Shown here: positions 32,956-53,227 of the stretch, in pieces
How the letters are laid out: each line of letters starts with the position of its first letter
Numbering within the stretch: position 1 is the stretch's first letter
Assembly (NCBI GenBank): GCA_963717985.1
Contig: CAVQYC010000005.1
Location: 265,106-329,105, forward strand
DNA: 64,000 nucleotides
Origin: an uncultured delta proteobacterium
GTDB lineage: Bacteria > Desulfobacterota > Syntrophorhabdia > Syntrophorhabdales > WCHB1-27
Reading direction: 5' to 3'
Translations under genes and position numbers: made by a program
The notes under the pieces: generated by a model
Told to the model about the DNA's origin: nothing
Database searches by the model: none
The model's input: only the letters and a program-made list of their open reading frames with translations

Positions 32956-33693
32956 TTATCGTACTTCTTTTGCGGCGTAAAAATCAGTATAGAAATATCG
33001 ATCATGAATCATGTCATCGAAATTGTCATGCTTTTTTATGTGAGGAAATCTAACAGAAAGCCCTAAATTTTCCAAGAGCTTAAGGTATTCATTGGGCCTA
33101 ACTCCCGCCTTGTTGAGTGCGTAAGGCCACAATTCCCCCAGTATGACAAGAGATGAAGAATGGTTTATTGTTTCAACAGCCCCTTTGATGGCGTAAAAAT
33201 CGTATCCTTGGATATCGATCTTGATGAAGTCGACCTTTTCACTGTTGTTGAGATAATCGTCGATAGAAACAGACTGAGTTTCAACGCACTTTCTGCCTTC
33301 GCCGCTGTCAAAAGTCTGATGGTCCACATTAAATCTGTCGGAGAGGTAGAGTTTCAGTTTCCCGGTTTTGTCTCCGCAGGCCAACTGACGCACGGTAACA
33401 TTTGCAAATTTCCTTGCATTTGCACTAAGACGCCTGAAATTAAGTGCATCCGGCTCAAAGGCTATGACATGCCCCTTTTCGCCCACCAATTTTGAGAATA
33501 GAATAGAATAGAAACCAATATTCGCGCCGATATCTAGAACCTTCATTCCGGGCTTGACGGTTCTCTTGATTAACGCAATCTGTTCTCTATCGCTCACGGT
33601 TTTATAGAGAAAATACAGAGGTTTGTAAAGAAAATAGAAATGCCTGTAGAGCCCGTTAAAACACGTGTATACGGCGTATAGCAGTTTATTCAA
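32956..33693 (-). CDS. FkbM-family SAM-dependent methyltransferase
   Basis: VLDIGANIGFYSILF followed by VIAFEPDALNFRRL and ACGDKTGKLKLY is the FkbM family pattern. Confidence 0.8.
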   Translation of the reverse strand: MNKLLYAVYTCFNGLYRHFYFLYKPLYFLYKTVSDREQIALIKRTVKPGMKVLDIGANIGFYSILFSKLVGEKGHVIAFEPDALNFRRLSANARKFANVTVRQLACGDKTGKLKLYLSDRFNVDHQTFDSGEGRKCVETQSVSIDDYLNNSEKVDFIKIDIQGYDFYAIKGAVETINHSSSLVILGELWPYALNKAGVRPNEYLKLLENLGLSVRFPHIKKHDNFDDMIHDRYFYTDFYAAKEVR

Positions 33694-33883
33694 GTTTACC
33701 TTTCAGATTGTAGCCAACATTGGTTCTTATCTGTCCGGAACGGCTTTTGAAGGCGGGCCCGAAACGGCGAGAATGTGTTCGGCCAAAACGACATAGGACC
33801 CTGACAAAGTTTCCCGGCATTGTGTTCTCCGGCGCAGCGCGAGCTATGCAGGGTGCTTGACGCGGCAGACCGGTCATCACATA

Positions 33884-34675
33884 TCAGGTTCGCATGAAAA
33901 TGAACTCATTACAGCCCGTCGGCACGCCTGCCCTTACCGTCCGAACTGTGACAAAACCCTCCTTGTTCAGGACCTGCTCGATCTCAGGCACGGAAGCATA
34001 TTCGTAGGGATACCCACCCACCCAGTCCACGACATTGAAATAGAAGTCCATGCCCCGCTGCTGCTTCTTGGGGCTCCGGCGGGCAACGGCAAACTTGGCA
34101 AGATAGATAACAGGATACAGCAGGGCCACTAACGGTTTTTGAAGGAGGGGGAACTTATTGTAGCTGTATTTAATGACGAGCCACGCAGGGCTTGTCCAGT
34201 GTCTGTTGTAGATGGCGATTATGAGTTGTCCTCCCGGTTTGACAAGGGAGCATACGTTTTTCAAGGCCATCTTCATATTGCCTGTATGGTGAAGCACGCC
34301 CCAGGAATGAACGATATCGTACTGTCCGCTCCTATCCGGCGATCTGTCTCGCAACGTTTTCACCGCATCTCCCTCGATAATCGAGCCAACCACAAGGTCC
34401 ACTTTCCGATCGTTCGCCTCAGGAAAATAGACGTGGTTCCTCTCTATTACTTCACGGCATCTGGGATTTATGTCGCATCCTACCGCGCGTGCTCCCTGCT
34501 CTGCCGCAATCAGAAGGCTGATCCCCTGTCCGAATCCGACATCAAGAAAAGAGCGATCGCGCAGTTCTATCCCCTGGAATAACGCGGCAAAGTCCCTCCT
34601 TGCCTGCGATATCTTTTCCTCGGAAAGCGCAGCCTGAGAGAATTTTAACCAGTTTCTACCGAAATCAAACTGCAT
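33884..34675 (-). CDS. Class I SAM-dependent methyltransferase
   Basis: Motif I FLDVGFGQG, an acidic loop GCDINP and post-I YDIVHSWGVLHH. Confidence 0.8.
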   Translation of the reverse strand: MQFDFGRNWLKFSQAALSEEKISQARRDFAALFQGIELRDRSFLDVGFGQGISLLIAAEQGARAVGCDINPRCREVIERNHVYFPEANDRKVDLVVGSIIEGDAVKTLRDRSPDRSGQYDIVHSWGVLHHTGNMKMALKNVCSLVKPGGQLIIAIYNRHWTSPAWLVIKYSYNKFPLLQKPLVALLYPVIYLAKFAVARRSPKKQQRGMDFYFNVVDWVGGYPYEYASVPEIEQVLNKEGFVTVRTVRAGVPTGCNEFIFMRT

Positions 34676-34744
34676 GAAGGCCCATGGAATAGAACGATAC
34701 CCCGAACATTATGACATGTTCACTATCGCGGTCCTATGCCACTG

Positions 34745-35446
34745 TCACGTGACGATGCCGACTATAGTGAACCTCCTGAGAAAGGTCAACCTTAGTTTGT
34801 ACAACTTATCCTCATCGCTTCGAGATCCTGACGTGAGAAATGTAAGCACCTTGACGCATCGGCTCACCAGAAACCCGCCAACTCCGGTAAAAGGCCCGTA
34901 GGTATATCGGCTCCCTGCTATACGAAAACCGGCGTCGTACAATAGTTGCCTGGCACGGCGCAGAGTGGTCACGTAGTTGTGCGTAAAATCACAGTTAAAA
35001 AAATCGGTTTTCCAGTCAAGGCTGTCCGGACTGATGATTGACAAGATACCTCCGGGTCTCAAAACCCGACGGGCTTCCTTAACAAACTGTTGCGCGTATT
35101 CAGCATCAGCCAAGTGTTCGAGGACATCGGCTATGATCAGAGCATCATAGGACCGGTCAGGCGCCTGTATGGGCGGGACCATGAAATTGCTTATCGTCCT
35201 TATCCCGAGGCCGGTTAATAGTGAATTCATCAGCGGATTGGGCTCACATGCGTCGAACCGTGAGAAACCACTGTTGATAAATATCCGAGCGAGCAGGCCC
35301 TGCCCCGGGCCAATTTCCAGTATTTCGGCTTCCCTGGAGCTCAGGAACCGGCTTATGTAGACCTGTTCTCGACGTTTGGTCAGTTTTTCAAGCCACGCAC
35401 CGACCTGCGTGGGAGTGCCGCGAGCAAAGTGATCAAAAAAGGCCAT
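34745..35446 (-). CDS. Class I SAM-dependent methyltransferase
   Basis: Motif I ILEIGPGQG, YDALIIADVLEH and LRPGGILSI. Confidence 0.8.
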   Translation of the reverse strand: MAFFDHFARGTPTQVGAWLEKLTKRREQVYISRFLSSREAEILEIGPGQGLLARIFINSGFSRFDACEPNPLMNSLLTGLGIRTISNFMVPPIQAPDRSYDALIIADVLEHLADAEYAQQFVKEARRVLRPGGILSIISPDSLDWKTDFFNCDFTHNYVTTLRRARQLLYDAGFRIAGSRYTYGPFTGVGGFLVSRCVKVLTFLTSGSRSDEDKLYKLRLTFLRRFTIVGIVT

Positions 35447-35481
35447 ACTGTCAATCCTCTGAAGCGTTTTGCTGGATTCTT

Positions 35482-36309
35482 TTATAGGGGCTGTTTTCGA
35501 GCGACCACAAACTTCATATCACTGCACCTGTCTCTGAAACGCTCATACAAAGCCACGCCTCCTTTGGGCCTATAGAACAGGTAGTCTTCATTCCGCACAA
35601 GAACGCATTGCCGGCATAGGGTCTCAAGTACCTTACCCCAGTCTACATGGTCGTCAGGCCAGACATGAATGTCGCCTTCTCTCTTGTAGCGCCGGTTTAC
35701 AAACAACTTGATTAACGCAGTTTTATAAAGCGACAGCGAGAAGAGGTCTCCGTCCCTCATGAGTTGTGCCAAGTGATCGAGGATGCGGTAAGACGTCAGA
35801 GCCTGATATTCACCTAACACGCCATCAGGCCTCCAATGGTTGTCGGTGAACTCGTGGTCTATATAAAGCAGGCCCCCTGGCTTAAGCACCCGGACCAACT
35901 CGTTCACCGCGCGAAGGTAGTCCGGAACATGGTGTAAGACCGAATATGTGACTGCCATATGAAACGTGTGATCAGCAAAGGGAAGATTCTCCCCGGCGAA
36001 GAGTGTCGTATTGAGACGATCGGACCCCATTTTTTGCTTCAGGATATCAAGTGACATCCTCGAAACATCGCAAGCGGTTACCAGAAACTTTTTCTCAAGA
36101 AAAAACTTTGTCAGGTTCCCGGTTCCCGCTCCGAAATCCACCACATGTATTTCGCCATGTTCTGCGTAGCTCGCTGCCAAGTCTGCGACTATTTTTCCGA
36201 TTCGACCTTGTTCGATATCATTAAAGATCTCCCGGTGCTTTGAATCGTAGGTGTGCGCCATTCTGTTTTGAGAGCCGCCATTCAATTTAGACAGATTGTG
36301 ACGAGTCAT
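35482..36309 (-). CDS. Class I SAM-dependent methyltransferase
   Basis: Motif I VVDFGAGTG, ACDVS, VTYSVLHHV and LKPGGLLYI. Start codon uncertain. Confidence 0.8.
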   Translation of the reverse strand: MTRHNLSKLNGGSQNRMAHTYDSKHREIFNDIEQGRIGKIVADLAASYAEHGEIHVVDFGAGTGNLTKFFLEKKFLVTACDVSRMSLDILKQKMGSDRLNTTLFAGENLPFADHTFHMAVTYSVLHHVPDYLRAVNELVRVLKPGGLLYIDHEFTDNHWRPDGVLGEYQALTSYRILDHLAQLMRDGDLFSLSLYKTALIKLFVNRRYKREGDIHVWPDDHVDWGKVLETLCRQCVLVRNEDYLFYRPKGGVALYERFRDRCSDMKFVVARKQPL

Positions 36310-36315
36310 TGAGTC

Positions 36316-37440
36316 TCACGCACACAGCAATTGTTCATAAATTGTCCTGAGCTGGGACACGTAGCGCTCGACATCGTACTGTCTCGATGTGGCAAGCCCC
36401 CCGGCCGTGAGCTTGTCTCGCAAATCAGGCTGTGACCGGAGGAGCAGGATTTTGTTCGCCAAATCCTCCGCGTTGCCCGTTTCAAACAGAAGGCCATTCT
36501 GACCATCCTGAATTATTTCGTTCAGGGCTTCGGTATTGGAGGCAATTACAGGCACACCGAGGGCTTGGGCCTCGATCTCAACCAAACCCTGCGGTTCCCA
36601 TAATGACGGCACGACCAGACAATTCAGGCCCATATAGAATGACTTCATGTCTTCGATCTGGCCAAAATAGATGATACGGTCTGCCCGTGCTCTCTCCCTG
36701 ATCGCCTCAAGAACCCGCTGCTTTTCGGGGCCGTCGCCGGCAATCAGGAATTTGAATGCCGGGAACTTCCCGAAGACGTGATCCGTGGCGTCCAGAAAGG
36801 TCAACCAGCCCTTGCGATGCACCAACCTGCCCGCAAAACCGACACGGAAATCTGAGGCATCAGGACCCCGAGCACTGTGGTCCAACCTTCGTCCTCTATC
36901 TGAGACGGGATCGGCATTGCGGAAAAGTGGATCAACGAAGTTGTACAGCACGCTAATTTTGTCGGCCCTGATACGGGAGCGATTGATCAACCGATTCCGG
37001 GTCGCTTTGGAGATGGCAATGAAACCATCGACCTGAAGAGAAGCGATGCGAAGAAACGCCGCATAGAGCCTGTCCCCTGACACGCTACCCAACTCCGACC
37101 CGAAAATCCGCCCATGTTCATGAAATATCAGCTTTATCCTGGGAAAGAATAGCGTCTTCAACAACCAACCGAATACCTGTGACCGAAAGAGATGGCAGTG
37201 AAGAACATCTACGGGATGGCCACTAACCCATTTCCGCAAACCAAGCAGGGGCATTAGAGAAAAGCGCCATTCCGAATCGTTGATAGTGACTCTTGGATGC
37301 TCTACAGGGACAGGGTTCTTCACGGGGCGCAAAACGTAAAGGGAAACATCCGGGTCCTGGCGTTGACGCTCCAGCAATCCTTTGACAATTATCTGGGCTC
37401 CACCTCTTGCCAAAGAGTCCACGACATGAAGCGCTCTCAT
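36316..37440 (-). CDS. Family 4 (GT-B, group 1) glycosyltransferase
   Basis: N-terminal HVVDSLARGGAQ and the C-terminal E-x7-E region EPQGLVEIEAQALGVPVIAS. Confidence 0.85.
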   Translation of the reverse strand: MRALHVVDSLARGGAQIIVKGLLERQRQDPDVSLYVLRPVKNPVPVEHPRVTINDSEWRFSLMPLLGLRKWVSGHPVDVLHCHLFRSQVFGWLLKTLFFPRIKLIFHEHGRIFGSELGSVSGDRLYAAFLRIASLQVDGFIAISKATRNRLINRSRIRADKISVLYNFVDPLFRNADPVSDRGRRLDHSARGPDASDFRVGFAGRLVHRKGWLTFLDATDHVFGKFPAFKFLIAGDGPEKQRVLEAIRERARADRIIYFGQIEDMKSFYMGLNCLVVPSLWEPQGLVEIEAQALGVPVIASNTEALNEIIQDGQNGLLFETGNAEDLANKILLLRSQPDLRDKLTAGGLATSRQYDVERYVSQLRTIYEQLLCA

Positions 37441-39155
37441 CGTTGCCTAAGATCCCCCGATTTCGATCCAACAGGAGAGATGCGAATGACCGAGAAAAGC
37501 TGATCGGTGTAGACGGCATTGGCAACGGGCCATGGAACCACTGCCAGTTCTGCGCGGTGTTTCTGTGCGACGCGGACGACTTCTTCCGTCCTGCCGCTGC
37601 TCAACGCCTTCTGGGTGTCGGACAATTCATCGACCCATGTGACAGCTTTAGCGGTAACCGCAGCCACGGCAGCCGCCTGTCGCGACCCCACTAGGGTCAA
37701 GTTCAGCAAAGACAGGTCGTCCCGATTGGTCAGCACCCGGGTCCCTGGCCTGGCATTCCGGTCCAGCCATGTCCTAAGTTGTTCAGTGGAGTAATAGAGA
37801 GAACTGGCATTGCCGCCGCCACCAATGCCTAAAGCCGAGCGTGCATTTCGCATCGCAGCCATATCCTGTCCGTTCACGATGCCGGTGTTAGTGGCTACCG
37901 ACAGAAGATACTCCCGCGCCGAGCCTGACATGGACTTCATAAACGCCGGCAACGCCAAGTAGGCTACGACAATAAACATTGCTCCGGCGATTGCTTTTCG
38001 GTCTCCCGGCTCGGTCGCTTTCTCAAAGAGACAGAAGATAAAGTAGATGGACGGGATCATGACGACAGACAGAGCGCGAACCTCTTCGAAGTTAATCGGG
38101 TAAACAGGAAAAAATGACCTGACGATCCACATGAGAGTCTGAGGTCCGAATGACACTACAACCGAACTGAGAAAAAGTCCCGCCATCAGCCGGTCGTTCC
38201 CAGTCAGTCCCTGACGCTTTCGGACAAAGAATCCGGCCACTGCCAGAAGACCAATCAAGGCGTACGACGAAATCATATTGGCCACATTGACGAGGGGCAC
38301 GGGCATATTCCGCCATGGCCGCAGACTGAGCTCGACGTCCCAGGCCACTGCAGGGGTCATCACATCGCCTGGCACCATTGGCAGGATGGATCTCCCTTTG
38401 GCCATCGCGCTAAGTACAGCCACATTGTTCGTGCTGAACCTTGTCTGTTGCAGCGCCAGAAGCGTCAGGCAAGCCAGTCCCAAACCTCCAATAAACCAGA
38501 AGATACGAGCATCAACTTTCCACTTCCGAAGCACGGCAAAGTCCCAGGCCTCCAGCGCAACAAAAATGGCGATGATGTGAAAGGCACTCAGATGAATTGG
38601 GGAGCAAAGCACCAATAGCGAATACACTAGATATTTCGCTGGAGTTTTAGAAAATTGCCAGAAGAACCAGAACGCCAGGATGATCAGGGGCATCACAAGG
38701 GTTCGACTCAGCAACGCCGTCGAATCGGTGACGCCCCATGAGGAAATACCAAAGGAAACCGCAAAGGCGGCCAGGATGGCAAAAAACACGCATTTCCATT
38801 TCAGGTCGGTGAAAAGCGACATCCACAGCTCAAACGCGAACAGGTAAAAGACCGTCGCCACAGCCAGAATGATCCTCATCGAAAGTATATGCGAGCCGGT
38901 ATACGCATGGAGGTAGGCCATCAGGACGGCAAAGTTCCTGACAGAATTCGACTCCTTCCAGTAATCACCCGCCGGCCTCGCCGCCAGAATGGAGTCTGCA
39001 AGTTTGATATAGGAGATGTGATCCCCACCCAAGGGCGGTTGCGGACCCATGGCCACAAAAGTAAGAGCCGAAAATCCAATGTAAAGAGCGAAGGATACCA
39101 GGAGTCCCTTCAACCAACTTGATCTCGCTGCTGCGGTCGTCACATTCATCGTCAT
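37437..39155 (-). CDS. Uncharacterised polytopic membrane protein with a C-terminal soluble domain (polymerase or GT-C candidate)
   Basis: 572 aa. About 12 hydrophobic segments span residues 1-420, followed by a hydrophilic tail of roughly 150 aa. No family motif recognised. Coupled by ATGA overlaps to both neighbours. Confidence 0.5.
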   Translation of the reverse strand: MTMNVTTAAARSSWLKGLLVSFALYIGFSALTFVAMGPQPPLGGDHISYIKLADSILAARPAGDYWKESNSVRNFAVLMAYLHAYTGSHILSMRIILAVATVFYLFAFELWMSLFTDLKWKCVFFAILAAFAVSFGISSWGVTDSTALLSRTLVMPLIILAFWFFWQFSKTPAKYLVYSLLVLCSPIHLSAFHIIAIFVALEAWDFAVLRKWKVDARIFWFIGGLGLACLTLLALQQTRFSTNNVAVLSAMAKGRSILPMVPGDVMTPAVAWDVELSLRPWRNMPVPLVNVANMISSYALIGLLAVAGFFVRKRQGLTGNDRLMAGLFLSSVVVSFGPQTLMWIVRSFFPVYPINFEEVRALSVVMIPSIYFIFCLFEKATEPGDRKAIAGAMFIVVAYLALPAFMKSMSGSAREYLLSVATNTGIVNGQDMAAMRNARSALGIGGGGNASSLYYSTEQLRTWLDRNARPGTRVLTNRDDLSLLNLTLVGSRQAAAVAAVTAKAVTWVDELSDTQKALSSGRTEEVVRVAQKHRAELAVVPWPVANAVYTDQLFSVIRISPVGSKSGDLRQR

Positions 39156-40093
39156 CTCTGCCCCGAAGGAAGCGGACCCGTGGACTTATGCACGACAATT
39201 CCCATGTCAGTGCTAAGATCGACCAGGGCCAGCAGAGAAGGCAGAAGAAATGGTCGGTCAAAGCGATAGACAATTTCAACCCGCCCGAAACCTTTGGCCT
39301 TCAATAACCTCCTGATCGTGCCCGGACTCATGACGTTGATATGCGTCTGCATGTAATACTGATGGATAAGCTCTGTCTCCGCGCTCCGAAACCCAGTCAG
39401 TTTCCGCCAACAGGAACGAAGAGATTCCCGGATAACCACCAGGACATGGTAAACGCCATTGCTGGCCGTCCTATCAACATTTCCATTGGGCGTATGGATC
39501 AGGAGCTTTCCGTCATCTTTCAGAAGATTCTTGAATACGTCCAGAAGGTTCTTGAACTCGCCCTCACCGAGATGTTCAACTACGTCCGACAATAGTATGT
39601 AGTCATACCGATCCTTGAACGGTTCGAGACTATCCACCCTGAAGAATTCCACGGTGCCCGGCATGGCTCCTCGGCAGCGGGCCAGCTTCTCCTTGGCCTT
39701 ATCGATAGCGTCAGTGTCAAAATCCACCCCGTGAACACGAAACCCCATGCTGCCAAGCGCCAGATCGAGTTCGCCGGCTCCACAGCCAAAGTCCATAACC
39801 GCAAGGGATTGCCGTTTTTCGTAATTTTGTAGACGGTCGAATATAAAGCTACAGTAATGATGGATACGGAACCCAGACACAGTTTCTACCGCCGGTAAGC
39901 TATCATGTATTTCCGTGTACTGCTTGTCGTAGATCGACTTCACATCCGAGCTAGTCAATGAACCGTATCGGGCCCGCGCATTCCGTTTTAGAAGGCCGAT
40001 TGTCGCATCGATTCCAATAATCTCTGCCAGGGCAAAGATCATCTTCTTGTCATCAAATACTTTCATGCCACATTCCACTGACAGTTTTTGCAT
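39152..40093 (-). CDS. Class I SAM-dependent methyltransferase
   Basis: Motif I VMDFGCGAG, GVDFD, ILLSDVVEHL and LKDDGKLLI. Confidence 0.8.
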   Translation of the reverse strand: MQKLSVECGMKVFDDKKMIFALAEIIGIDATIGLLKRNARARYGSLTSSDVKSIYDKQYTEIHDSLPAVETVSGFRIHHYCSFIFDRLQNYEKRQSLAVMDFGCGAGELDLALGSMGFRVHGVDFDTDAIDKAKEKLARCRGAMPGTVEFFRVDSLEPFKDRYDYILLSDVVEHLGEGEFKNLLDVFKNLLKDDGKLLIHTPNGNVDRTASNGVYHVLVVIRESLRSCWRKLTGFRSAETELIHQYYMQTHINVMSPGTIRRLLKAKGFGRVEIVYRFDRPFLLPSLLALVDLSTDMGIVVHKSTGPLPSGQR

Positions 40094-44021: not shown

Positions 44022-44030
44022 CTATTGACA

Positions 44031-44915: not shown

Positions 44916-44949
44916 GGTGTGCCACCTCCGTCCGAAATAATGAGATGGT

Positions 44950-46809
44950 CTATCCAGCCGGTTCGTTCCATCGCGACAAAAGCCACGCATTCCAGAGAAA
45001 CGCGCGGTGATCATGGCGGCTGCTCCGATGCTCTTCGATCATGCGTTTCGTGAATGCGGCGTTGATTAAGCCGGTGCCGTCGGTTCCATCAACCGCGAAA
45101 TTGCCGTTCTGAAACCATTTGCCGATGGGAACTCCGAAGCCTTTTTTGGAGCGGTAGAGGATGCTGCCGGGGAGTACCGGCTCAAGAGCCTTCTTGAGTA
45201 TGTATTTGGATTGTCCCCTCCTGCACTTATAGTCACTGGGGATTCGCCGAACAAAATCGACGAGATCGATGTCAAGAAAGGGGGCACGGACCTCCAGAGA
45301 GTTCATCATGCTGGCGCGGTCTACCTTGACCAGGATATCATCCTGCAAATAAAGTTTTGTGTAAAACTGCAGCGTCTTGTCGGTCAGGTTATCCTGGGGA
45401 CAATTTTCCCAGTGCTCGATGGCCTCGGCATACACTTCCTCAAGGTCGACCGGTTCGTTGAACAGCTCCGCAAGATCGGTGGGATCAAGCGGCCCAAGCC
45501 ACACCGCGTTCCAGAATCGGCAAGGGTAGCTCAATCCGCGGAGGGTCCGCTTTATTCTGAAGTCAAGACTCATGTTTCGATGGGAGGTAGGTAGGCGAGC
45601 CATCACCATCCGGATCGCGGCATGAATCGGCTTCGGGACCAGGCGACCATATAGTTCGGCCCAGTAGAGTGCTTTGAATGGATCATAGCCGGCGAACAAC
45701 TCGTCTGCACCATCGCCACCGAGAGCCACTGTGACCTGCCTTCGTGCCTCCCTGCAGAGCAAGAATGTGGGTAGGATGGAGCTGTCACCCATGGGTTCGT
45801 CAAGTTTGCCGGCAATGTCGTCCAACAGCGACGCCGATCTCTCCAGAGAAAGGAATTCGAGGACATGGTCCGTCCCGAGAAAGGATGCTACTTGCCGTGA
45901 ATAGCTGGATTCATCAAATGATGGTTCCTCAAAACCGATTGAGAATGACTTGATCCTGTCTCCCGCGGAAGAAACCGCGAAAGCGGCAATTGAGGAAGAG
46001 TCGATTCCGCCGCTGAGGAAAATACCCAGCGGAACATCCGACATAAGTCTACGCTTGACGGCTCGCTGCAAGAGGTCGCGAATGGCCTCTCCCCATTCAC
46101 TCTCCGGGTTTTGTGGGATCTTCTCGAAAGGTTCTATCGCAAGGTCCCAGTATTTTGTGATCTCAACCTCCATCCGGGGCAGGCTTAGGAGCAGGTTGTA
46201 TCCACCCGGCAGCTTGAGAATCTTGTGATACAAGGACCAGGGGGCCGGAATGTATCCGTAGGCAAAGTATTTCTTAAGGCTCATCGGGTTGATACTTGTC
46301 ACTATAGACGGATGCTTGACGAGTGAACTCAGCTCGGAGGCGAAGGCAAATGTTCCATTCTGAAGTGAATAAAAGAGCGGCTTCTTGCCAAAACGGTCGC
46401 GACTGATAAATATCTCCTGCTTCTGCCGGTCATAAATAGCGAATGCCCACATACCGTTCAGCCTCTGGGGCAGACCGTCGCCCCACTCCCGGTATCCGTG
46501 GAGTAAGACCTCCGTGTCCGAATGGTCTGACGAGAATCGGTGGCCGGCGTCGGTCAGGGCTGCACGAAGGTCGACATGGTTGTAAATCTCCCCATTGAAG
46601 ACCACGCCGAGGGCTCCGTCGGCCGTCCACATCGGCTGATTTCCACCTGCCAGATCGATGATGGAAAGCCTGCGATGCCCGAGATATACGGCTTTCTTTT
46701 CATCGCTCCACAGCCCCTCAGCATCAGGGCCACGGTGGGTCATAGCCCTTGACATACGTGTCAGGTCCTGCAAATCGCCTTGACCGACAAAACCGCAAAT
46801 GCCGCACAT
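44950..46809 (-). CDS. asnB: Asparagine synthase (glutamine-hydrolysing) family amidotransferase
   Basis: N-terminal nucleophile MCGICG, the Ntn glutaminase domain and the PP-loop FLSGGIDSS. Confidence 0.9.
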   Translation of the reverse strand: MCGICGFVGQGDLQDLTRMSRAMTHRGPDAEGLWSDEKKAVYLGHRRLSIIDLAGGNQPMWTADGALGVVFNGEIYNHVDLRAALTDAGHRFSSDHSDTEVLLHGYREWGDGLPQRLNGMWAFAIYDRQKQEIFISRDRFGKKPLFYSLQNGTFAFASELSSLVKHPSIVTSINPMSLKKYFAYGYIPAPWSLYHKILKLPGGYNLLLSLPRMEVEITKYWDLAIEPFEKIPQNPESEWGEAIRDLLQRAVKRRLMSDVPLGIFLSGGIDSSSIAAFAVSSAGDRIKSFSIGFEEPSFDESSYSRQVASFLGTDHVLEFLSLERSASLLDDIAGKLDEPMGDSSILPTFLLCREARRQVTVALGGDGADELFAGYDPFKALYWAELYGRLVPKPIHAAIRMVMARLPTSHRNMSLDFRIKRTLRGLSYPCRFWNAVWLGPLDPTDLAELFNEPVDLEEVYAEAIEHWENCPQDNLTDKTLQFYTKLYLQDDILVKVDRASMMNSLEVRAPFLDIDLVDFVRRIPSDYKCRRGQSKYILKKALEPVLPGSILYRSKKGFGVPIGKWFQNGNFAVDGTDGTGLINAAFTKRMIEEHRSSRHDHRAFLWNAWLLSRWNEPAG

Positions 46810-46811
46810 AA

Positions 46812-47831
46812 TCAATTGCCTTCAAAGTTACGGGATTCCGAGACGGAATATACCGGTTTCTGCTGGGATTCGTGATAGGTCCTGATAAGAATCTCAGCTA
46901 TCAGACCCATAAGAACGCACATGACGCCGGTGATGCTGCACATTATGAAGAGCAGGGGTAAAGGGGTTGAGATAAAAGCTTTGCCGTGGAAGAGCTTGTA
47001 GTACAGGCTGGCAACAGCCGAGCAAAATGCGGCCATGAGATTCAGGATTCCAAAGACACCGAAGACGTAAATCGGTTTCTGGGCATATTTGGCAAAAAAC
47101 TTTACCACGATGAGATCGAGGAGCACCTTGACCGCCCTTTCAATCCCGTACTTCGACTTGCCGTGTATCCTTGCATGGTGATTGACGGGGATCTCCGTGA
47201 CTCTCGCCCCTTCCCAAAAGGCATATATGGGGATGAAACGATGCATCTCGCCGTAAAGCTTGACCTCTTTTATAACCTCTTTTCTGTAAGCTTTAAGGGA
47301 GCAGCCGTAGTCGTGGAGATGGACCCCGGAAATCCAGGATATCAGGAAATTGGCAATGCGACTGGGCAGGTTGCGCCTCAAGGCATGGTCTTTGCGGTTC
47401 TTACGCCATCCCGAGCACACGTCGTACCCTTCTTCCAGCTTGGCAAGCAAAAGCGGTATATCCTGCGGGTCGTTTTGGAGGTCTCCATCCATGGGAACCA
47501 GCACATCCCCCGAGGAAAAATCGATTCCCGCCATCATCGCCGCCGTTTGACCAAAATTTCTCCGGAAGTGGATCACTTTTACCCGGAGGTCCCTTTCGGC
47601 CAGTTTGTCCAGGGTACTCTTAGTTCCGTCGGTAGATCCGTCGTTAATGAAAATCAATTCGAACGGGCAACCAAGGATTGGCGCCACATTCAACACCATT
47701 TCATAAAGGGGCAGGATATTTTGTTCCTCATTGTAAACAGGTACGATGAAAGATAGAAGCCCGAGCCATGAGGGGTCAGTCATGGTTCTTGCCCGGGGCG
47801 CGTCTGCATCAAAGGGATGAGGGGTTTTCAT
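46812..47831 (-). CDS. GT2 polyprenyl-phosphate glycosyltransferase (GtrB/ArnC/DPM1-like)
   Basis: VPVYNEE, INDGSTDGT, MDGDLQNDP and two C-terminal TM helices. The ATG at 47831 forms an ATGA overlap with the upstream gene. Confidence 0.8.
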   Translation of the reverse strand: MKTPHPFDADAPRARTMTDPSWLGLLSFIVPVYNEEQNILPLYEMVLNVAPILGCPFELIFINDGSTDGTKSTLDKLAERDLRVKVIHFRRNFGQTAAMMAGIDFSSGDVLVPMDGDLQNDPQDIPLLLAKLEEGYDVCSGWRKNRKDHALRRNLPSRIANFLISWISGVHLHDYGCSLKAYRKEVIKEVKLYGEMHRFIPIYAFWEGARVTEIPVNHHARIHGKSKYGIERAVKVLLDLIVVKFFAKYAQKPIYVFGVFGILNLMAAFCSAVASLYYKLFHGKAFISTPLPLLFIMCSITGVMCVLMGLIAEILIRTYHESQQKPVYSVSESRNFEGN

Positions 47832-49210
47832 CCAACACGTTTGCACTCCGTTGAGCGGACTTTCCTGAACCAAAATATATAACAGGCAGCGGTCAGGTGT
47901 TCGCGCACGTTTTGCTTAATATCTGCCACGAAAACATTGCGCAGCCCACTCGCAATCATGCTCAGCAGAAAAACAGATATTATCAACGGATTCAGTATGA
48001 CTGAGATGCTTATATCTCCTTTTATAGGATAGTACGCCTTCGGAATCAAAAGCAATGCGAAAAGAATCGAGTAGAGGAGGTCTGCTCCGCTCCTTTCCTT
48101 GGAATTGAGAAATAGCCACATGGGTATGTACAAGTTGAGAAGCCTGTAATCGGCCGTTACAAAGGGGAAAAATATCATACTCAGTGTCAGGATCGCCACT
48201 TTTTTCCATAGTTCTTTCTCTACCAACACTATGTACAGAGCAACAAGTGCAAAAAGCAGCAAGGAGACCCAATAATAGGTTCTGTAAAGCAGCAGTAGGC
48301 GCGGGGCCGATACTTGCGGAGCCCACGCGTAAATCGCTGCCTTAAGCGCTCCGAAGGCGCTCGAGCAAAACGCCGCTCCCCCGTCGCCTATCACGTATAG
48401 AGCGTTGTAAGTATTCCGAGGGTCCCCAGAGCTCTTGATTATTGAAGTAAAGCTTGAAAAGCGAAAAGTGATGCCTTGGAGGCTATTATAAGTCAACCCA
48501 GACAAGACGAGCAGGGTGCCCCCGAAGATGGCTATGTCTTTGTACCTTTTTTCTGATAAGTAAAGAAGGAAAAATATGACGGGGTAGATTTTCAGCGCCG
48601 TTGCTGCGGCGAGGAAGATGGCGCTTATCCATGTCTTATTAGAGCGAAAAAAGTACACAAATAGAGACAACAATATGAAGGCAAAACCTTCGACATTTCC
48701 TCTATCCAGGGTAAAAAGTACGGGATAAGAGAGGAATGACAAAACGAAGAGGCCAAGAATAAGGCTGACCGGGGACATCTTCGGGAAAGATCCCGACAGT
48801 AGATTCTTCAGGTTGTAAAACAGCACATACAGAGCTATCGTTACGGTGTAGACTAGAAAAGACACGTAGGCGTTCTTGAAAGAGATCAGATAAAGGAACC
48901 GCCACACGAAGTATGCCAGTCCTGATGTGCCGACCATGCCTTCACCATGACCGGCTGTTACGTAAGTGAGCGAGTTAAAGTAATCCATGAATCTATCCCC
49001 AGGTTGAAACAGGAAAGTATTGAAGGGATATCCCAGATGCATATACGTGCCCATGAAGTAGTGAAAAAGAGCGGACAAAATGAACCCAGTGAACACGATG
49101 AAGGAAACGATGCTGATCTTGTCCTTTCTCTCCAAAGATATCTTTGCCCATCTCGAAGTTTTCAGGAATGACAGGAAGGCGCTATTTTTACTGAAGAAAG
49201 TTTTGTGCAT
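47828..49210 (-). CDS. Uncharacterised polytopic membrane protein (GT-C or polymerase candidate)
   Basis: 460 aa, about 12 TM segments, with an LKIYPVIFFLLYL segment reminiscent of DUF2029/GT87-type proteins. Family assignment is weak. Confidence 0.45.
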   Translation of the reverse strand: MHKTFFSKNSAFLSFLKTSRWAKISLERKDKISIVSFIVFTGFILSALFHYFMGTYMHLGYPFNTFLFQPGDRFMDYFNSLTYVTAGHGEGMVGTSGLAYFVWRFLYLISFKNAYVSFLVYTVTIALYVLFYNLKNLLSGSFPKMSPVSLILGLFVLSFLSYPVLFTLDRGNVEGFAFILLSLFVYFFRSNKTWISAIFLAAATALKIYPVIFFLLYLSEKRYKDIAIFGGTLLVLSGLTYNSLQGITFRFSSFTSIIKSSGDPRNTYNALYVIGDGGAAFCSSAFGALKAAIYAWAPQVSAPRLLLLYRTYYWVSLLLFALVALYIVLVEKELWKKVAILTLSMIFFPFVTADYRLLNLYIPMWLFLNSKERSGADLLYSILFALLLIPKAYYPIKGDISISVILNPLIISVFLLSMIASGLRNVFVADIKQNVREHLTAACYIFWFRKVRSTECKRVG

Positions 49211-49278
49211 GGCTGATCCTGTTACCTGGGCATGGCTTTATTTGTCCAGAAGCAATAAGGTGGGCCGCAAACCGGTAT

Positions 49279-51747
49279 TCAGTTTATCCGCTCGTACACA
49301 CTCACGAGCTCCCCTTTCGCGATTTTTCTATAGTTGTTTCTTACCCCATCGAATACTTTTTTCAATTCAAGGAGTCTTCCGTATCTTGAAGCCCTCTCAT
49401 TTTTGTCGAAATTACTGATAAATAGTGTATTCCATGGATCGAAGGGCTTGTTGGTGAGATCGATATCCGTATCCACGAAGAGGAATCGCGCGCGGTTCTT
49501 TTCAATGCTATCAACCGCCACCGCAGTATCCTCACGGGAAATCAAAGCCCAAGACAGTTCGAACTGGGGCATGCGGCTGTATTTACGAGCGAGAAATGGC
49601 AGAAGATTATCATACCGTGAGATAATGAAAATCCCGTCATCCGCTTCGCTGTATTTGTCTATGAGCGAGACGGCCTCTGTCAGTGGGGAAGGATTGATTG
49701 TCGTTATCACTTTTGCCCTCGGAAACTGCCAGTGATAGACGCGATGATCGGTGAAGTTATTATAAAACTCTTGTTTACCGGTGTAGTAACTAACGGCTGC
49801 AACTAACATAAGCAGGAAGAAACCGGCGGTAAGAGCCGCTACCCCCATGCGCAGTTTGTCTCTTGCTTCTTCCCTTTCCCTGAGGAGTACTTTATGCGCG
49901 ACGAAGAGCATAAGAAAGAGCTGTACTCCGAGAAAGGGAAGGACCAAAGGAAGATGGTTGAGAAAGCCGGACCAGTAGAAGTAAACGAGCAACCCCTGGC
50001 TGTACATGAAGCTGAACGTATAGAGGTATTTGACAGGTTCTCTGTGAGGCCTCAATAAGAGCATGAATGCATAGGATACGACCAGGTAAAAAAGCGTCAA
50101 TACCACAATCACTCTTTCGGGCTCCCATGAGAAGTAGCCGAGAAGGAAGTAGTGGAAATCGTGAGCCGATTTTCCGGCGGGCAGAAGAAGAAGCAGGGCA
50201 ACGTCCAAGGCAAGCATGGCGACAGTGATTGCAACCGCAGGATAAGTTCCTTTTTTGTAGAAGTTTTCAAGAATGAAAAGGCCTGCGATGAGGACAAAGG
50301 CTGTAGAAAGGATCGCCCCGAACTGAAAGCTGCACAATAGGGCCAGCGTTGAGGCAAGCGCCGCAAGGCCGAGAAAGATCAAGTTCTTCCGCGAAAAAAA
50401 CAGGACCAGCAGAATGAGTACCACTACATCGAACATGTGACCCGAAGGCATTATGCCCGGAGCTAACACGAAGCCTATAAAGCCTGTCCAGAAGAAAGCG
50501 AGGGCATAGACGGCGAAAGATCCGAGCGTGAACAGGCGATCCCCCTTGAACAGCATTCTCAGCATAATGAAGAAGAGCGCTGCGTAGATCAAATAGAATA
50601 CGTAGCACTTGTAGTACCCCTGGAGGGAGAGGTCTCCAGACAGGTCTGTCACCCATTTCATGAGAAACGTGTTCCCAACGCCATACTGAAAGTACGATTG
50701 GTCTAGTGGCCTGCCTAGCGCATATTCATTGAGTGGGTTAAGGATGTGGCCGATATGGTTGATCTGCCCCCTAGTCATGTTCTGATGTTGGTATTCCAAC
50801 ACATTGTTGAGATAGAAGCTCTTTATGTCTTCGATATCGGTGTTCGGATTCCGGATTGTCGAATTATCACCAAGTTTCTCTCCACCCTCGAGCGTAGAAG
50901 GTTCGTTCACCTTGCGATCGAGGTCATGGTATGCCTCGATCGGCCTGAGGTCCTCACTCTTCACGAAGGCAAGGACGACTGATCGGGATTTGATCGTCCT
51001 GTAGTTAATCGCTTTGTATCGATTCCTTAGGTCCTGAAATAAGGTGAAATCATATGCATTCTCGTGAAACCGGCCCAAAAACTCTCTGTTATTAACGTAC
51101 TTGTTTCTGATTAATGTCTCGCCATACAGGTCCTGGTACTCATTCATGAGATAAACCGGACCGAGCATGAGAAAGAAAGGCTCAAGAAGCAGCGCAAAAA
51201 GAATCAGATAGGAGCAGGCTAGCGACATTCGGGACAAGCGCCGGACAAGCGCCAGTTTGTCCGGCTTCCATGATGGAGTCAGAAAGAGTATCAGAGGAAT
51301 TACGAATATGAGGGCATAGACAGTGGGGCGTAATCCTGTAAAGAAAAAAGCGGTAGTGCCGAGACCGGATAAGGAAAGAATAGGTGACGCCACAAGGAGC
51401 AGGTATCCGATGCCATCGCTTTTGTTTCTTACGTAGCTTGTCAGTCTCCCGGTATAGAGGCATAGAGCACAAGCCCCGAGGAACGCAGCAACAATCACAT
51501 AATTGAATAGAGAACTCTCGGAGGGGTGGAAGAAGATATATACCCACGTATTGACATCGAGCTTCCCTATGACGGAGCTCTTCACGAAGGTAACCAGTTC
51601 CCACAGAAGAAGCGCCGCACCCGTCACCGAGAGCATGAGCTGAATGGTCAATAAGATAGTCTTACGTTCCGACAAGTTCCGAAAAGTCTCCTTGGTTATT
51701 CTGCGACTTTTGAGGAAAGGCTTGCCCTGCTGCGTGCGCTTGGGCAA
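49279..51747 (-). CDS. Large uncharacterised polytopic membrane protein (822 aa) in the GtrC position
   Basis: TM bundles occupy residues ~30-210 and ~390-650. They are separated by a ~170-aa hydrophilic insert, and a ~150-aa soluble C-terminus follows. TTG start, so the start is uncertain. No motif recognised. Confidence 0.5.
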   Translation of the reverse strand: MPKRTQQGKPFLKSRRITKETFRNLSERKTILLTIQLMLSVTGAALLLWELVTFVKSSVIGKLDVNTWVYIFFHPSESSLFNYVIVAAFLGACALCLYTGRLTSYVRNKSDGIGYLLLVASPILSLSGLGTTAFFFTGLRPTVYALIFVIPLILFLTPSWKPDKLALVRRLSRMSLACSYLILFALLLEPFFLMLGPVYLMNEYQDLYGETLIRNKYVNNREFLGRFHENAYDFTLFQDLRNRYKAINYRTIKSRSVVLAFVKSEDLRPIEAYHDLDRKVNEPSTLEGGEKLGDNSTIRNPNTDIEDIKSFYLNNVLEYQHQNMTRGQINHIGHILNPLNEYALGRPLDQSYFQYGVGNTFLMKWVTDLSGDLSLQGYYKCYVFYLIYAALFFIMLRMLFKGDRLFTLGSFAVYALAFFWTGFIGFVLAPGIMPSGHMFDVVVLILLVLFFSRKNLIFLGLAALASTLALLCSFQFGAILSTAFVLIAGLFILENFYKKGTYPAVAITVAMLALDVALLLLLPAGKSAHDFHYFLLGYFSWEPERVIVVLTLFYLVVSYAFMLLLRPHREPVKYLYTFSFMYSQGLLVYFYWSGFLNHLPLVLPFLGVQLFLMLFVAHKVLLREREEARDKLRMGVAALTAGFFLLMLVAAVSYYTGKQEFYNNFTDHRVYHWQFPRAKVITTINPSPLTEAVSLIDKYSEADDGIFIISRYDNLLPFLARKYSRMPQFELSWALISREDTAVAVDSIEKNRARFLFVDTDIDLTNKPFDPWNTLFISNFDKNERASRYGRLLELKKVFDGVRNNYRKIAKGELVSVYERIN

Positions 51748-51759
51748 ATTGATTCGGCT

Positions 51760-52212
51760 TCATCTATTCTTAAAGGAGAACTTCGAGTGTCCTACATAAC
51801 TTATGATGACACAGGCGAGGATCACGAGAGCGGCCGCGAACTTTGGAGTGAGCCTGAAGAATTCGACGAAGACAGGCAAAAGCACGAGGCTTAGCAGAAA
51901 AGTGCCGACATAGGTGAGGCAAAATCGAATAAACTCGATTATGAGAGAGGTACCCTCTTTAGTTGACCTGAAAGTAATGTACTTGTGGAAGACATATGCA
52001 TTGATGACCGAAATGATGTTTGAGACGATATTGGCACTCATATACGTGAGGTAACGGGTCTGAAAGACACCGGTAAAAAGCGTGTCAAAGAGAACGAACA
52101 TCAGATATCCGAATAGGGTATTCCACGCCCCGACAGCGACGAACCTCGCCTTCGTTTCATGTCTCTTATAAAGAGACAGATAGTGAGTTGATTCCGTGAT
52201 TGACATCTGCAT
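51760..52212 (-). CDS. gtrA: GtrA-family small membrane protein (polyprenyl-P-sugar translocase-like)
   Basis: 150 aa with 4 TM segments. FVAVGAWNTLFGYLMFVLF is the GtrA-family N-terminal signature. Confidence 0.75.
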   Translation of the reverse strand: MQMSITESTHYLSLYKRHETKARFVAVGAWNTLFGYLMFVLFDTLFTGVFQTRYLTYMSANIVSNIISVINAYVFHKYITFRSTKEGTSLIIEFIRFCLTYVGTFLLSLVLLPVFVEFFRLTPKFAAALVILACVIISYVGHSKFSFKNR

Positions 52213-52285
52213 CCGTCAAGTAGCCTCGAATGGCAATTATTGCTTTCACCTTGACTTTTGTCCTATCTCGAAATGGCAATTCCGA

Positions 52286-53227
52286 TTATGGCTTCTCGAA
52301 GCCTATCTTTTGATTGACAATGAAACTCGGCCTCGCCTTCACTTCCTCGTATATCTGCGCGATATACTGCCCCAATATCCCGAGGATGAAGAAAAGGATT
52401 CCGAACATCAACACGATGAGTGAAACGATTGTGCCATACCCGGCGAAGGGGACACCTTTCAAAATTATCCTGGCCACGGTAAACAGGAGATAGAGGAGCG
52501 ATACTCCCGATACAAATACACCGAAAACTGAGATGGAGCGAATGGGGATGTACGAGAAGGCAAATATGCTGCTCACGGCGAGCTGGACCACGTGAAACGA
52601 ATGGGCATGGGACTGCCCGGAAAACCTCCTGGCGCGCTCGTATTCCACCCCGACGGACTTGAAGCCGGTCCATGCGACCATGCCGCGAATAAAGCGGTTG
52701 CGCTCTTTCATGAAATTGATCGTTTCGTATACCTTTCGGTCAATAAGTCTGAAATCGCTCACGTTCTGTGGAATGAGATCATCGGTCATGACGTTTATTA
52801 TCTTGTAAAAGAGCACCGAGTTGAACCGCCTCAATAACCCCTTGCCCGTCCTCTTCTTTACTATGCCATAGACGTTTTCATACCCTTCTTCCCATCGCTT
52901 GATGAACTCGGTGATGACCTCCGGTCTGTCCTGCAGGTTTGCCGTCATAATAACGGCGGCATCGCCCCTGGCGTGGCTCAGCCCCGCCGTGATGCCCCCA
53001 TCCATCCTAAAATTCCTTGATAACTGGACAATCTTGAAACGTCTGTCCTCTTCGTTGACCTTGAGCATCTTTTCGAATGTGTGGTCTTGGGAGCCGTTTT
53101 CAACCAGGATGACTTCGAAATCATACTTATCGTTCTCATTGAATACAGCCTTGAGCTGCCGGGCCAGCTCGTCTACGTTGCCTTCCTCATTGTATGCTGA
53201 GGCAACTATGCTTATCAGTTTTTTCAC
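52286..53227 (-). CDS. gtrB: GT2 polyprenyl-phosphate glycosyltransferase (GtrB/ArnC-like)
   Basis: SAYNEEGNV, VENGSQDHT, MTANLQDRP and two C-terminal TM helices. Confidence 0.8.
   Translation of the reverse strand: MKKLISIVASAYNEEGNVDELARQLKAVFNENDKYDFEVILVENGSQDHTFEKMLKVNEEDRRFKIVQLSRNFRMDGGITAGLSHARGDAAVIMTANLQDRPEVITEFIKRWEEGYENVYGIVKKRTGKGLLRRFNSVLFYKIINVMTDDLIPQNVSDFRLIDRKVYETINFMKERNRFIRGMVAWTGFKSVGVEYERARRFSGQSHAHSFHVVQLAVSSIFAFSYIPIRSISVFGVFVSGVSLLYLLFTVARIILKGVPFAGYGTIVSLIVLMFGILFFILGILGQYIAQIYEEVKARPSFIVNQKIGFEKP

Follow-up and report, generated by a model that had tools for sequence, protein, structure and literature searches.

A methyltransferase-rich gene array built around a conserved nine-gene cassette points to a probable mosaic cell-envelope glycosylation locus in a Syntrophorhabdales-like bacterium

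In the Arn pathway, a sugar is loaded on undecaprenyl phosphate by ArnC, tailored by ArnD, flipped by ArnE/F and transferred by ArnT, and GT-C enzymes act extracytoplasmically on polyprenyl-phosphate-linked donors. Methylated glycolipids and polysaccharides include the mycobacterial glycopeptidolipids (GPL) and MGLP/MMP; sugar methylation raises the hydrophobicity of bacterial surfaces and changes their recognition by phages, predators and immune receptors. How methylated sugars are made is understood for only a few pathogens. Three or four sugar methyltransferases occur together in characterized loci of Tannerella forsythia, in whose glycan methyl groups were experimentally shown (PMC6120980), and of Mycobacterium tuberculosis, where Rv2954c/2955c/2956 are the O-methyltransferases of the phenolic glycolipid PGL-tb (PMC3594219). 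Acyl-branched 3,6-dideoxyhexose clusters make yersiniose, erwiniose, caryophyllose and gastriose by means of cytidine diphosphate (CDP)-4-keto-3,6-dideoxyglucose genes, a YerE-type thiamine diphosphate (ThDP) carboligase, a keto-acid-donor aldolase and a reductase, and one of them, from R. palustris, also has an S-adenosylmethionine (SAM) methyltransferase (PMC9306805). The locus described here lies in a stretch of 64,000 nucleotides (nt; contig CAVQYC010000005.1, positions 265,106 to 329,105), hereafter the window, and is a methyltransferase-rich array of glycan genes organized around a nine-gene cassette.

The interval 32956-53227 holds 17 co-directional genes on the minus strand, which belong to an array of 27 tightly packed genes with no strand switch up to the window end; through most of it, neighbors either overlap or lie less than 70 nt apart. 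The best reading of this array, to which a probability of about 0.7 was given, is a mosaic cell-envelope glycosylation locus that would follow a lipid-phosphate-sugar logic rather than the classical Wzx/Wzy or ABC O-antigen route, and which would yield a surface glycoconjugate bearing multiple methyl groups and, probably, amide groups. This reading was preferred because the methyltransferases are embedded in glycan machinery, co-inherited with it, under selection and in places fused to it, and because related loci add enzymes of the TylF and NodU types. Three modules were distinguished: module 1 from 63.6 to 53.3 kb, module 2 from 53.2 to 47.8 kb and module 3, the cassette, from 47.9 to 33.9 kb. 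Systems of this general kind and loci with several sugar methyltransferases had been described; the novelty lies in the conserved cassette, in its lipid-phosphate-sugar architecture with two GT-C families that Pfam and NCBIfam do not cover, and in the union with an acyl-branched-sugar module and a radical SAM enzyme. The cassette as a unit has apparently not been described before.

Methyltransferases were called with the Pfam and NCBIfam gathering or curated cut-offs and by reading a glycine-rich motif I in each sequence, and ratios of nonsynonymous to synonymous substitutions (dN/dS) were computed against relatives for which dS is partly saturated. A panel of 26 methyltransferase queries returned exactly six open reading frames (ORFs) in the 64 kb, and none elsewhere in it:

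32956..33693, minus strand: MT1, FkbM-family methyltransferase (PF05050 68.1 bits, cut-off 22.7; TIGR01444 99.3 bits, cut-off 37.7)
33884..34675, minus strand: MT2, class I methyltransferase by Pfam (dN/dS 0.12)
34745..35446, minus strand: MT3, class I methyltransferase by Pfam (dN/dS 0.13), frequent in the cassette
35482..36309, minus strand: MT4, class I methyltransferase by Pfam (dN/dS 0.26), frequent in the cassette
39152..40093, minus strand: MT5, class I methyltransferase by Pfam, with hydrophobic ends
44031..45014, minus strand: MT6, class I methyltransferase by Pfam

All six are intact minus-strand ORFs above cut-off, which bears out the preliminary description of this DNA, made from the sequence alone, and profile searches of the kind it had called for divided them into one FkbM and five class I (Rossmann-fold) enzymes; the latter, MT2-MT6, scored 43-68 bits against Pfam cut-offs of 21-30 (Methyltransf_11/12/23/25). 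Motif I is intact in each (VLDIGANIG, FLDVGFGQG, ILEIGPGQG, VVDFGAGTG, VMDFGCGAG and ILEIGAGSG). Since identity among the six does not exceed 31% over about 100 residues, they are not recent duplicates, and recent paralogy was rejected on this maximum. Pseudogenisation was likewise rejected on the intact motifs and on dN/dS values well below 1, so that an objection foreseen in the preliminary description, that these are degenerate paralogues, does not apply (0.12-0.26 for MT2-MT4). No NCBIfam equivalog score was reached by MT1-MT6, and PDB sequence searches with MT1, MT2, MT4 and MT5 returned generic SAM-binding cores only, from which no substrate could be inferred; at the level of sequence, O-, N- and C-methylation are not separable. 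Its hydrophobic ends suggest that MT5 is probably membrane-associated. The relatives of MT6 are called as proteins of 286-294 amino acids (aa), and its true start is probably internal, near 44891-44915.

A contig of the same strain (L001; 99.99% identical) departs from the window at 39947 (compared with L001 11786-13288), which is 146 nt into MT5, and continues with a DDE_Tnp_1 transposase followed by chemotaxis genes. This break may be a natural disruption or rearrangement by an insertion sequence (IS), or the assembly may have been joined there at an IS that occurs in several copies.

The methyltransferase density amounts to 2.96 per 10 kb, compared with 0.29 on average and 1.96 at most in 68 unrelated control loci of at least 10 kb each, a contrast that is approximate given a query panel biased toward this family. 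The preliminary description had placed the ratio of methyltransferases to glycosyltransferases far above that of ordinary clusters. The density of methyltransferases is indeed high against the controls; in the cassette family, where it averages 1.9 per 10 kb and reaches 3.3, it is ordinary, and loci with 3-4 methyltransferases were known before. The window stands at the upper end of a methylation-rich cassette family and is not a singular exception. The ratio itself was overestimated: it had been counted as 6:4 and is in fact 6:7, as three GT-C-type glycosyltransferases had been missed, two of them recognizable from structure prediction only; a GtrA protein, a flippase-like protein and the continuation of the operon to the window end had also escaped notice.

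The comparison with loci sharing this gene set drew on 33 loci, which were found by searching metagenome contigs with the family of the 572-aa protein listed below and onto which the window proteins were then mapped. A nine-gene cassette recurs among them, consisting of GT2a, AsnB, GT4b, the flippase-like protein, the 572-aa GT-C, GT4a, MT2, MT3 and MT4. Apart from the three methyltransferases, its members in the window are:

46812..47873, minus strand: GT2a, ArnC-like polyprenyl-phosphate sugar synthase (PF00535)
44950..46815, minus strand: AsnB-type glutamine-dependent amidotransferase (TIGR01536 490 bits, cut-off 267)
42894..44021, minus strand: GT4b, cytoplasmic Leloir glycosyltransferase (Glycos_transf_1 124 bits)
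41893..42897, minus strand: flippase-like LPG_synthase_TM membrane protein (PF03706 86 bits)
37437..39155, minus strand: 572-aa membrane protein with 12 transmembrane helices, predicted to be a new GT-C-fold glycosyltransferase
36316..37440, minus strand: GT4a, cytoplasmic Leloir glycosyltransferase (Glycos_transf_1 114 bits)

Elsewhere the orthologues of these genes are co-directional, full-length and 34-63% identical, in mutually unrelated metagenomic loci of 45-65% GC. The most conserved member is AsnB (62-63% identical in L096 and L100), followed down the range by GT2a (61-63%), GT4b (44-45%), the 572-aa GT-C (37-42%) and the flippase-like protein (34%), while the GT4a orthologues span 39-67%. 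MT2 is the methyltransferase retained most often, being present in 16 of the 33 loci (50-52% identity in L096 and L100, 78% in L090); MT3 and MT4 reached 45% and 44% in L096 and 81% and 71% in L090, respectively. In L125 and L124, the cassette, including three methyltransferases, was observed as an operon of its own with housekeeping genes on its flanks, which are those for shikimate dehydrogenase, ALAD and MlaC in one of the two loci and gyrB and gyrA in the other. Other loci are richer: L096 holds 7-8 methyltransferases, including a TylF-type sugar O-methyltransferase, together with a NodU-type carbamoyltransferase, and L123, from a proteobacterial metagenome-assembled genome (MAG), holds at least six, including an FkbM enzyme and an MT::GT2 fusion. 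Purifying selection acts on MT2-4 and also on the non-methyltransferase genes for which dN/dS was obtained, namely AsnB (0.09), GT4a (0.17), GT4b (0.18), the 572-aa GT-C (0.24) and the radical SAM enzyme treated below (0.045). Three independent gene fusions found elsewhere, MT5::flippase-like (L112), flippase-like::GT-C (P0205) and MT::GT2 (L123), tie the methyltransferase, flippase-like and GT-C steps together. The heavily methylated, possibly amidated glycan of the preliminary description is thereby supported as regards the methyltransferases, given the co-inheritance of MT2-4 with glycosyltransferases, their dN/dS and the fusions; it is not as regards the radical SAM enzyme, which could not be counted as a methylase.

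Two further protein families were noticed in these loci. A protein of about 597 aa without a Pfam family follows GT4a in many cassettes (L125 13346-15139, L096 13076-14869, L123 11913-13733), with 915-943 bits between copies, and is absent from the window. A second unassigned family occurs at L008 8262-9995 and L123 3174-4874, in the latter after a second LPG_synthase_TM gene. Split genes in L006 and L007 are more likely long-read assembly indels than signs of decay.

The domain matches for the class-B-type radical SAM enzyme, the AsnB-type amidotransferase, the two GT4 enzymes and the two polyprenyl-phosphate glycosyltransferases all fell where the preliminary description had put them. The AsnB-type protein has its true start at the ATG at 46809, where the MCGICG N-terminal nucleophile follows two spurious codons, and belongs to the AsnB type; the XrtA/PEP-CTERM amidotransferase (TIGR03108) was considered and rejected for it, with 540 bits against a cut-off of 816.9 and no exosortase in the window. 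GT2a found its best family match in the ArnC model (194 bits, model positions 8-309 of 316). The second enzyme of this kind, GT2b in module 2, spans positions 3-304 of 308 of the PgfS model and also matches ArnC over its full length. Both belong to the ArnC/GtrB/PgfS type at scores under the equivalog cut-offs, and because they align end to end with ArnC/PgfS and carry C-terminal transmembrane helices, they would be expected to work like polyprenyl-phosphate sugar synthases. The 572-aa ORF gave no Pfam or NCBIfam match. Its AlphaFold2 (AF2) model, calculated from an alignment of 49 homologues, reached a predicted local distance difference test (pLDDT) score of 86.9, and in a Foldseek search against the PDB its top nine matches were all GT-C enzymes (STT3, AftA, DPY19, ArnT and Pmt4; probability 1.0, TM-score about 0.45); all members of the family share a D45-H46 pair in their first external loop. 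On this model, the protein is assigned to the GT-C-fold glycosyltransferases.

These components suggest how the cassette could work. GT2a would make a polyprenyl-phosphate-linked sugar, and the GT4 enzymes would lengthen an intermediate that is cytoplasmic or lipid-linked. SAM, ATP and glutamine are found in the cytoplasm, and GT-C enzymes transfer outside; for this reason methylation and amidation would precede flipping and act on nucleotide- or lipid-linked intermediates, the SAM methyltransferases and AsnB tailoring them on the cytoplasmic face, with MT5 at the membrane. The tailored product would then be flipped by the LPG_synthase_TM protein and passed by the GT-C enzyme to an envelope acceptor.

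Upstream of the cassette, module 2 appears to repeat the same principle:

47828..49210, minus strand: GT87-like GT-C membrane glycosyltransferase, 460 aa, about 11 transmembrane helices (PF09594 35 bits, cut-off 25)
49279..51747, minus strand: 822-aa polytopic protein with a predicted GT-C-like fold and no Pfam family (AF2 pLDDT 84.7)
51760..52212, minus strand: GtrA-family small membrane protein, candidate lipid-linked sugar flippase (PF04138 72 bits)
52286..53227, minus strand: GT2b, PgfS/ArnC-like polyprenyl-phosphate sugar synthase (PgfS 232 bits, ArnC 132 bits)

The 822-aa family has 433 representatives, and its structural model indicates that the protein is probably of the GT-C type. PDB profile searches with the 572-aa and 822-aa families gave no match, and hhalign detected no relationship between the two. 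By analogy, GT2b, GtrA, the 822-aa protein and the GT87-like protein resemble another system of this sort, of the Gtr/Pgf type (PMC5856776), which immediately follows the CDP-sugar module; GT2b would load a sugar on polyprenyl phosphate for GtrA and the two GT-C-type proteins to flip and to attach on the outer side of the membrane.

Module 1, at the upstream end of the window, comprises genes for a CDP-linked sugar:

59704..63641, minus strand: CDP-4-keto-3,6-dideoxyglucose genes, namely E3-like reductase, RfbH, RfbG and RfbF (NCBIfam equivalogs for the Rfb trio)
56754..59713, minus strand: ThDP-dependent, acetolactate-synthase-like carboligase (three TPP domains) and epimerase-family NAD(P)H reductase
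53345..56723, minus strand: AroB-related cyclase (TIGR04425), SDR and two HpcH/citrate-lyase-type aldolase-like genes (Pfam/NCBIfam)

RfbH (706 bits, cut-off 423), RfbG (455, cut-off 278) and RfbF (412, cut-off 300) all exceeded their equivalog cut-offs, the true start of RfbF lying probably at 63605. The ThDP enzyme scored below every acetolactate synthase cut-off. The aldolase-like pair, 50% identical to each other, matched HpcH_HpaI at 28 and 38 bits (cut-off 25), and a PDB search with the HpcH-like protein gave no sequence match. The AroB-related protein barely passed TIGR04425 (406 bits, cut-off 400), and its closest solved structures are true dehydroquinate (DHQ) synthases, not DOIS or EEVS. 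The ThDP carboligase would attach a branch derived from an alpha-keto acid and built by the HpcH-type aldolases, and the reductase would complete a 4-C-branched 3,6-dideoxyhexose of the yersiniose/caryophyllose kind. The cyclase, SDR and two aldolases may make a longer or carbocyclic branch, a combination outside the published scheme (PMC9306805). With this module, the signature of acyl-branched sugar clusters now reaches an anaerobic syntroph lineage. The operon leaves the window in a further sugar gene:

63775..63999, minus strand: RmlD-like gene, C-terminus only, read from the translation

Contigs L126/L127 of the same strain place the operon start about 2 kb past the window end, with RmlA- and RmlD-like genes; RmlB and RmlC are absent beside them in L126/L127 1-7100, which covers about 6 kb beyond 64000.

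Among the genes interspersed in the cassette, one belongs to a different class of SAM enzymes:

40266..41732, minus strand: B12-binding radical SAM enzyme (PF02310 75 bits, cut-off 32; PF04055 75 bits, cut-off 29.5)

Its radical SAM core motif is CPFNCIFC, with C220/C224/C227 invariant, and it belongs to class B (B12-binding). It scored below the cut-off of every NCBIfam subfamily, the best score being that for Sden_1168, a P-methyltransferase model (201 against 575); the others included BchE (175 against 481), HpnJ (154 against 578), HpnR (130 against 650), PhpK (72 against 600), KedN5 (74 against 700) and the C-methyltransferases of ribosomally synthesized and post-translationally modified peptides (RiPPs; 98 against 282). 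Among solved structures, QCMT, which C-methylates glutamine, comes closest (9ccb, E 3e-23), and some homologues at 37-39% identity are fused to a class I methyltransferase. The class includes GenK and Fom3 and also has rearranging, ring-contracting and cyclising enzymes (PMC12931638). Because the enzyme lies below all named subfamilies and the class also catalyses rearrangements, it cannot count as a methylase; C-methylation would be plausible. Gaps of 160 and 172 nt separate the gene from its neighbors, and a repeat search over 32-54 kb returned short chance matches only, with no mobile-element scars flanking it. In Bathyarchaeota and other MAGs (L017, L018, L029, L031, L034, L050 and others), distant homologues form tandem arrays of up to 7-8 B12-radical SAM paralogues, often with one MT4-like methyltransferase and GT2/GT4 genes.

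It is in connection with this enzyme that a lipid product has to be weighed. The cassette could modify a membrane lipid: a GT4 would glycosylate a polycyclic lipid, diacylglycerol or phosphatidylglycerol, whose head group would be tailored by the radical SAM enzyme together with the methyltransferases, and the LPG_synthase_TM protein would flip it as MprF does, in parallel with HpnI/HpnJ/HpnK/HpnL. The trio of a glycosyltransferase, a B12-binding radical SAM enzyme and an LPG_synthase_TM-type protein does resemble HpnI/HpnJ/HpnL, HpnJ ranks third among the NCBIfam models matched by that enzyme, the GT4 proteins weakly match glycolipid synthases (MGlcDAG synthase, GlcN-PG synthase), and no polymerase, ligase or initiating transferase was found. 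However, every Hpn score is far under its cut-off, no match to the HpnL model was obtained, and neither the window nor the stand-alone cassettes contain lipid or squalene-hopene (shc) genes. Moreover, the radical SAM enzyme is outside the conserved cassette, and the ArnC-like GT2 and GT-C enzymes imply polyprenyl-phosphate-sugar donors and extracytoplasmic transfer. A lipid product was therefore considered unlikely, and a glycolipid would in any case still agree with the "glycan or glycolipid" of the preliminary description.

The differences among related loci bear on another explanation, in which the methyltransferases would serve several products and the array would be an IS-driven pile-up of unrelated genes for different glycans, some of them being lost. 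In a close relative (L112/L091/L090; 74-80% protein identity to the window), the order is AsnB, a methyltransferase, GT4b, the MT5::flippase-like fusion (79% identical to MT5), GT-C, GT4a, MT4, MT3, MT2, a GT87-like gene and a homologue of the 822-aa protein, the radical SAM gene being missing. A sister species (L008; 79-84% nucleotide identity) retains GT2a-AsnB, GT4b-flippase and the radical SAM gene, and carries in addition two further methyltransferases, a methyltransferase fusion of 765 aa and two extra radical SAM enzymes, one a second B12-radical SAM enzyme and the other of the SPASM type. Because gene contents differ there, the cassette periphery was regarded as a hot spot for the exchange of tailoring enzymes. 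The position of MT6 is occupied by non-orthologous methyltransferases in L008, L124 and L125, and MT1, which is separated from MT2 by the widest gap of the array (190 nt), has no orthologue in related cassettes and is apparently lineage-specific; the sequence comparison indicates that MT5, MT6, the B12-radical SAM enzyme and the FkbM enzyme MT1 were added to the cassette in this lineage. These gains and losses, the IS-rich surroundings with an IS3 element at the 3′ end of the array, the interruption of MT5 by an IS in one same-strain contig, and the four or five separate GT2/GT-C pairs in the region would all suit a pile-up. Against it, MT2, MT3 and MT4 accompany the same glycosyltransferases across distant loci, all motifs are intact under the dN/dS values given above, the genes are closely spaced through most of the array, and fusions join methyltransferases physically to the machinery. 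A pile-up was judged improbable, somewhat more so than a lipid product.

A secondary-metabolite cluster of the aminocyclitol/aminoglycoside type, to which a DHQ-synthase-like cyclase, a DegT-family enzyme, GT4s, a B12-radical SAM methylase, N/O-methyltransferases and an amidotransferase would lend a superficial likeness with gentamicin- or validamycin-type clusters (GenK and Fom3 being of the same radical SAM class, PMC12931638), was dismissed as very improbable, given that the DegT-family protein is an RfbH equivalog accompanied by RfbF and RfbG equivalogs, that the cyclase is nearest to true DHQ synthases, that five polytopic GT-C/flippase-type proteins and two polyprenyl-phosphate GT2s would be out of place there, and that no resistance or export genes are present.

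Several points weigh against a mosaic glycosylation locus with a methylated, amidated product. First, the window and about 6 kb beyond it are without an initiating phosphoglycosyltransferase, Wzy, a chain-length regulator, WaaL or an ABC transporter (Wzm/Wzt), and no acceptor was identifiable; of the classical O-antigen or capsule equipment, the same range holds only a weak Wzx-like protein (28942-30306). Second, no uridine diphosphate (UDP)-sugar dehydrogenase, which would supply AsnB with uronic acid, occurs here or in the stand-alone cassettes. Third, the top 17 Foldseek matches of the 822-aa model are GT-C enzymes (STT3, PglB, AftA, DPY19, Emb), with TM-scores of just 0.3-0.4. Fourth, the E3-like reductase (59704-60426, minus strand, 240 aa, FNR-like) has FAD/NAD domains only and lacks the [2Fe-2S] ferredoxin domain expected of an RfbH partner, and the upstream module matches the acyl-branched-sugar clusters (PMC9306805) by gene composition only. 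Finally, the modules could serve different glycans.

A more far-reaching proposal was also put forward, and only tentatively: that the nine-gene unit, found in loci of widely differing GC including proteobacterial MAGs, might represent an undescribed pathway in which methyl and amide groups are added, on the inner face of the membrane, to a sugar or short oligosaccharide linked to polyprenyl phosphate, which is then flipped by an MprF-type module and installed on the envelope by a GT-C absent from the family databases, and that the unit might have been expanded here by a B12-radical SAM enzyme that modifies a carbon of the sugar and coupled, via the AroB-related cyclase, to a long-chain or carbocyclic 4-C-branched dideoxyhexose.

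As to the host, exact window proteins recur in several metagenome assemblies, including a 614-kb contig, and because the window RecN is 71% identical to Syntrophorhabdaceae/Syntrophorhabdales sequences, its sequence implies a Syntrophorhabdales-like diderm of Thermodesulfobacteriota. Divergent from the operon start, L126/L127 encode a seventh class I methyltransferase (258 aa), a GT2 (209 aa) and a PMT_2-type GT-C, another small set of methyltransferase, GT2 and GT-C. On the other side of the array lie:

31562..32778, minus strand: IS3 element, orfA/orfB (rve and HTH_Tnp_1), bounding the 3′ end of the array
28942-30306, minus strand: 454-aa protein with 10-12 transmembrane helices and a weak WZX_like match (81 bits, cut-off 300)
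27971-29023, minus strand: GT2, outside 32956-53227
26925-27953, plus strand: GT2, outside 32956-53227
25565-26932, plus strand: PMT_2-type GT-C, outside 32956-53227

The IS3 element is one of an inverted pair, 99.8% identical over 1280 bp (about 19026-20305, plus strand; about 31546-32825, minus strand), between which lie NAD kinase, RecN, TldD/PmbA and four further glycan genes, so that the bracketed segment at the 3′ end of the methyltransferase array is inversion-prone or composite-transposon-like. A small ORF between the Wzx-like gene and the IS3 (30367-30768, minus strand) is PIN-domain toxin-like, as judged by eye from its translation. The first part of the window, 1-13000, is dense in insertion sequences:

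269-1243: rve integrase
1943-4314: IS21 IstA/IstB
5567-7312 and 7419-9164: two 581-aa DDE_Tnp_1_6 transposases
11003-12637: IS4-like transposase

An Rfam search found no riboswitch or other RNA within the window, and specifically no cobalamin or SAM riboswitch. Promoter and terminator scans gave no excess over shuffled sequence and thus no operon evidence.

For glycobiologists, the cassette is compact and portable, and its nine to eleven genes make a defined set for expression and assays. It offers candidate enzymes for regiospecific sugar methylation, for the tailoring of lipid-linked sugars before flipping and for radical sugar chemistry, possibly B12-dependent.

Compared with described systems, the radical SAM enzyme shares with QCMT/MgmA, TokK, GenK, Fom3, Sden_1168, HpnJ and BchE the N-terminal B12-binding domain and the CxxxCxxC radical SAM core; unlike these named class B enzymes, its own family (about 40-85% identity) is entirely uncharacterized. 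Module 1 has in common with YerE/YerF, ErwE/F/I/J, MMAR_2331/2332 and the MyGE clusters the CDP-4-keto-3,6-dideoxyglucose genes and, by domain family, a ThDP carboligase, an HpcH/citrate-lyase-type aldolase and an NAD(P)H reductase, whereas the window adds a second aldolase-like paralogue, an SDR and the AroB-related cyclase (TIGR04425), and its E3-like reductase is without 2Fe-2S. The mycobacterial systems resemble the window in having several dedicated sugar O-methyltransferases beside GT4-type or other glycosyltransferases, at a methyltransferase-to-glycosyltransferase ratio near or above 1. They differ in phylum and envelope, in products that are lipid-anchored or cytoplasmic, and in having neither AsnB nor an ArnC/GT-C route for the methylated residues.

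The O-glycosylation cluster of T. forsythia (27 kb; wzx, gtfSMILE, mtfJOY, asnB; PMC6120980), likened to the window by gene content, also unites glycosyltransferases (about five), methyltransferases (three), an AsnB-type enzyme, a flippase and a rare-sugar pathway in one polycistronic locus. Its glycan, unlike that proposed for the window, is built on a lipid-pyrophosphate carrier by Leloir glycosyltransferases and flipped by Wzx; the cluster has no ArnC-like GT2, GT-C partners or radical SAM enzyme, and its methyltransferases are half the number of those in the window.

As a working analogy, the Arn pathway comes closest: there, ArnD provides a precedent for the tailoring of a lipid-linked monosaccharide prior to flipping, as is proposed for the cassette. 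With ArnC/ArnD/ArnEF/ArnT, GtrA/GtrB/GtrC, CsbB/GtcA/YfhO and PgfS/PgfM1/PgfM2 (PMC5856776), the locus shares the combination of a GT2 with C-terminal transmembrane helices, a small or flippase-like membrane protein and a GT-C transferase. It departs from them in that all scores in the window are below the equivalog cut-offs, its GT-C families have no Pfam/NCBIfam model and its flippase candidate is an LPG_synthase_TM protein; among all these systems, the cassette alone has two GT4s, an AsnB and at least three methyltransferases.

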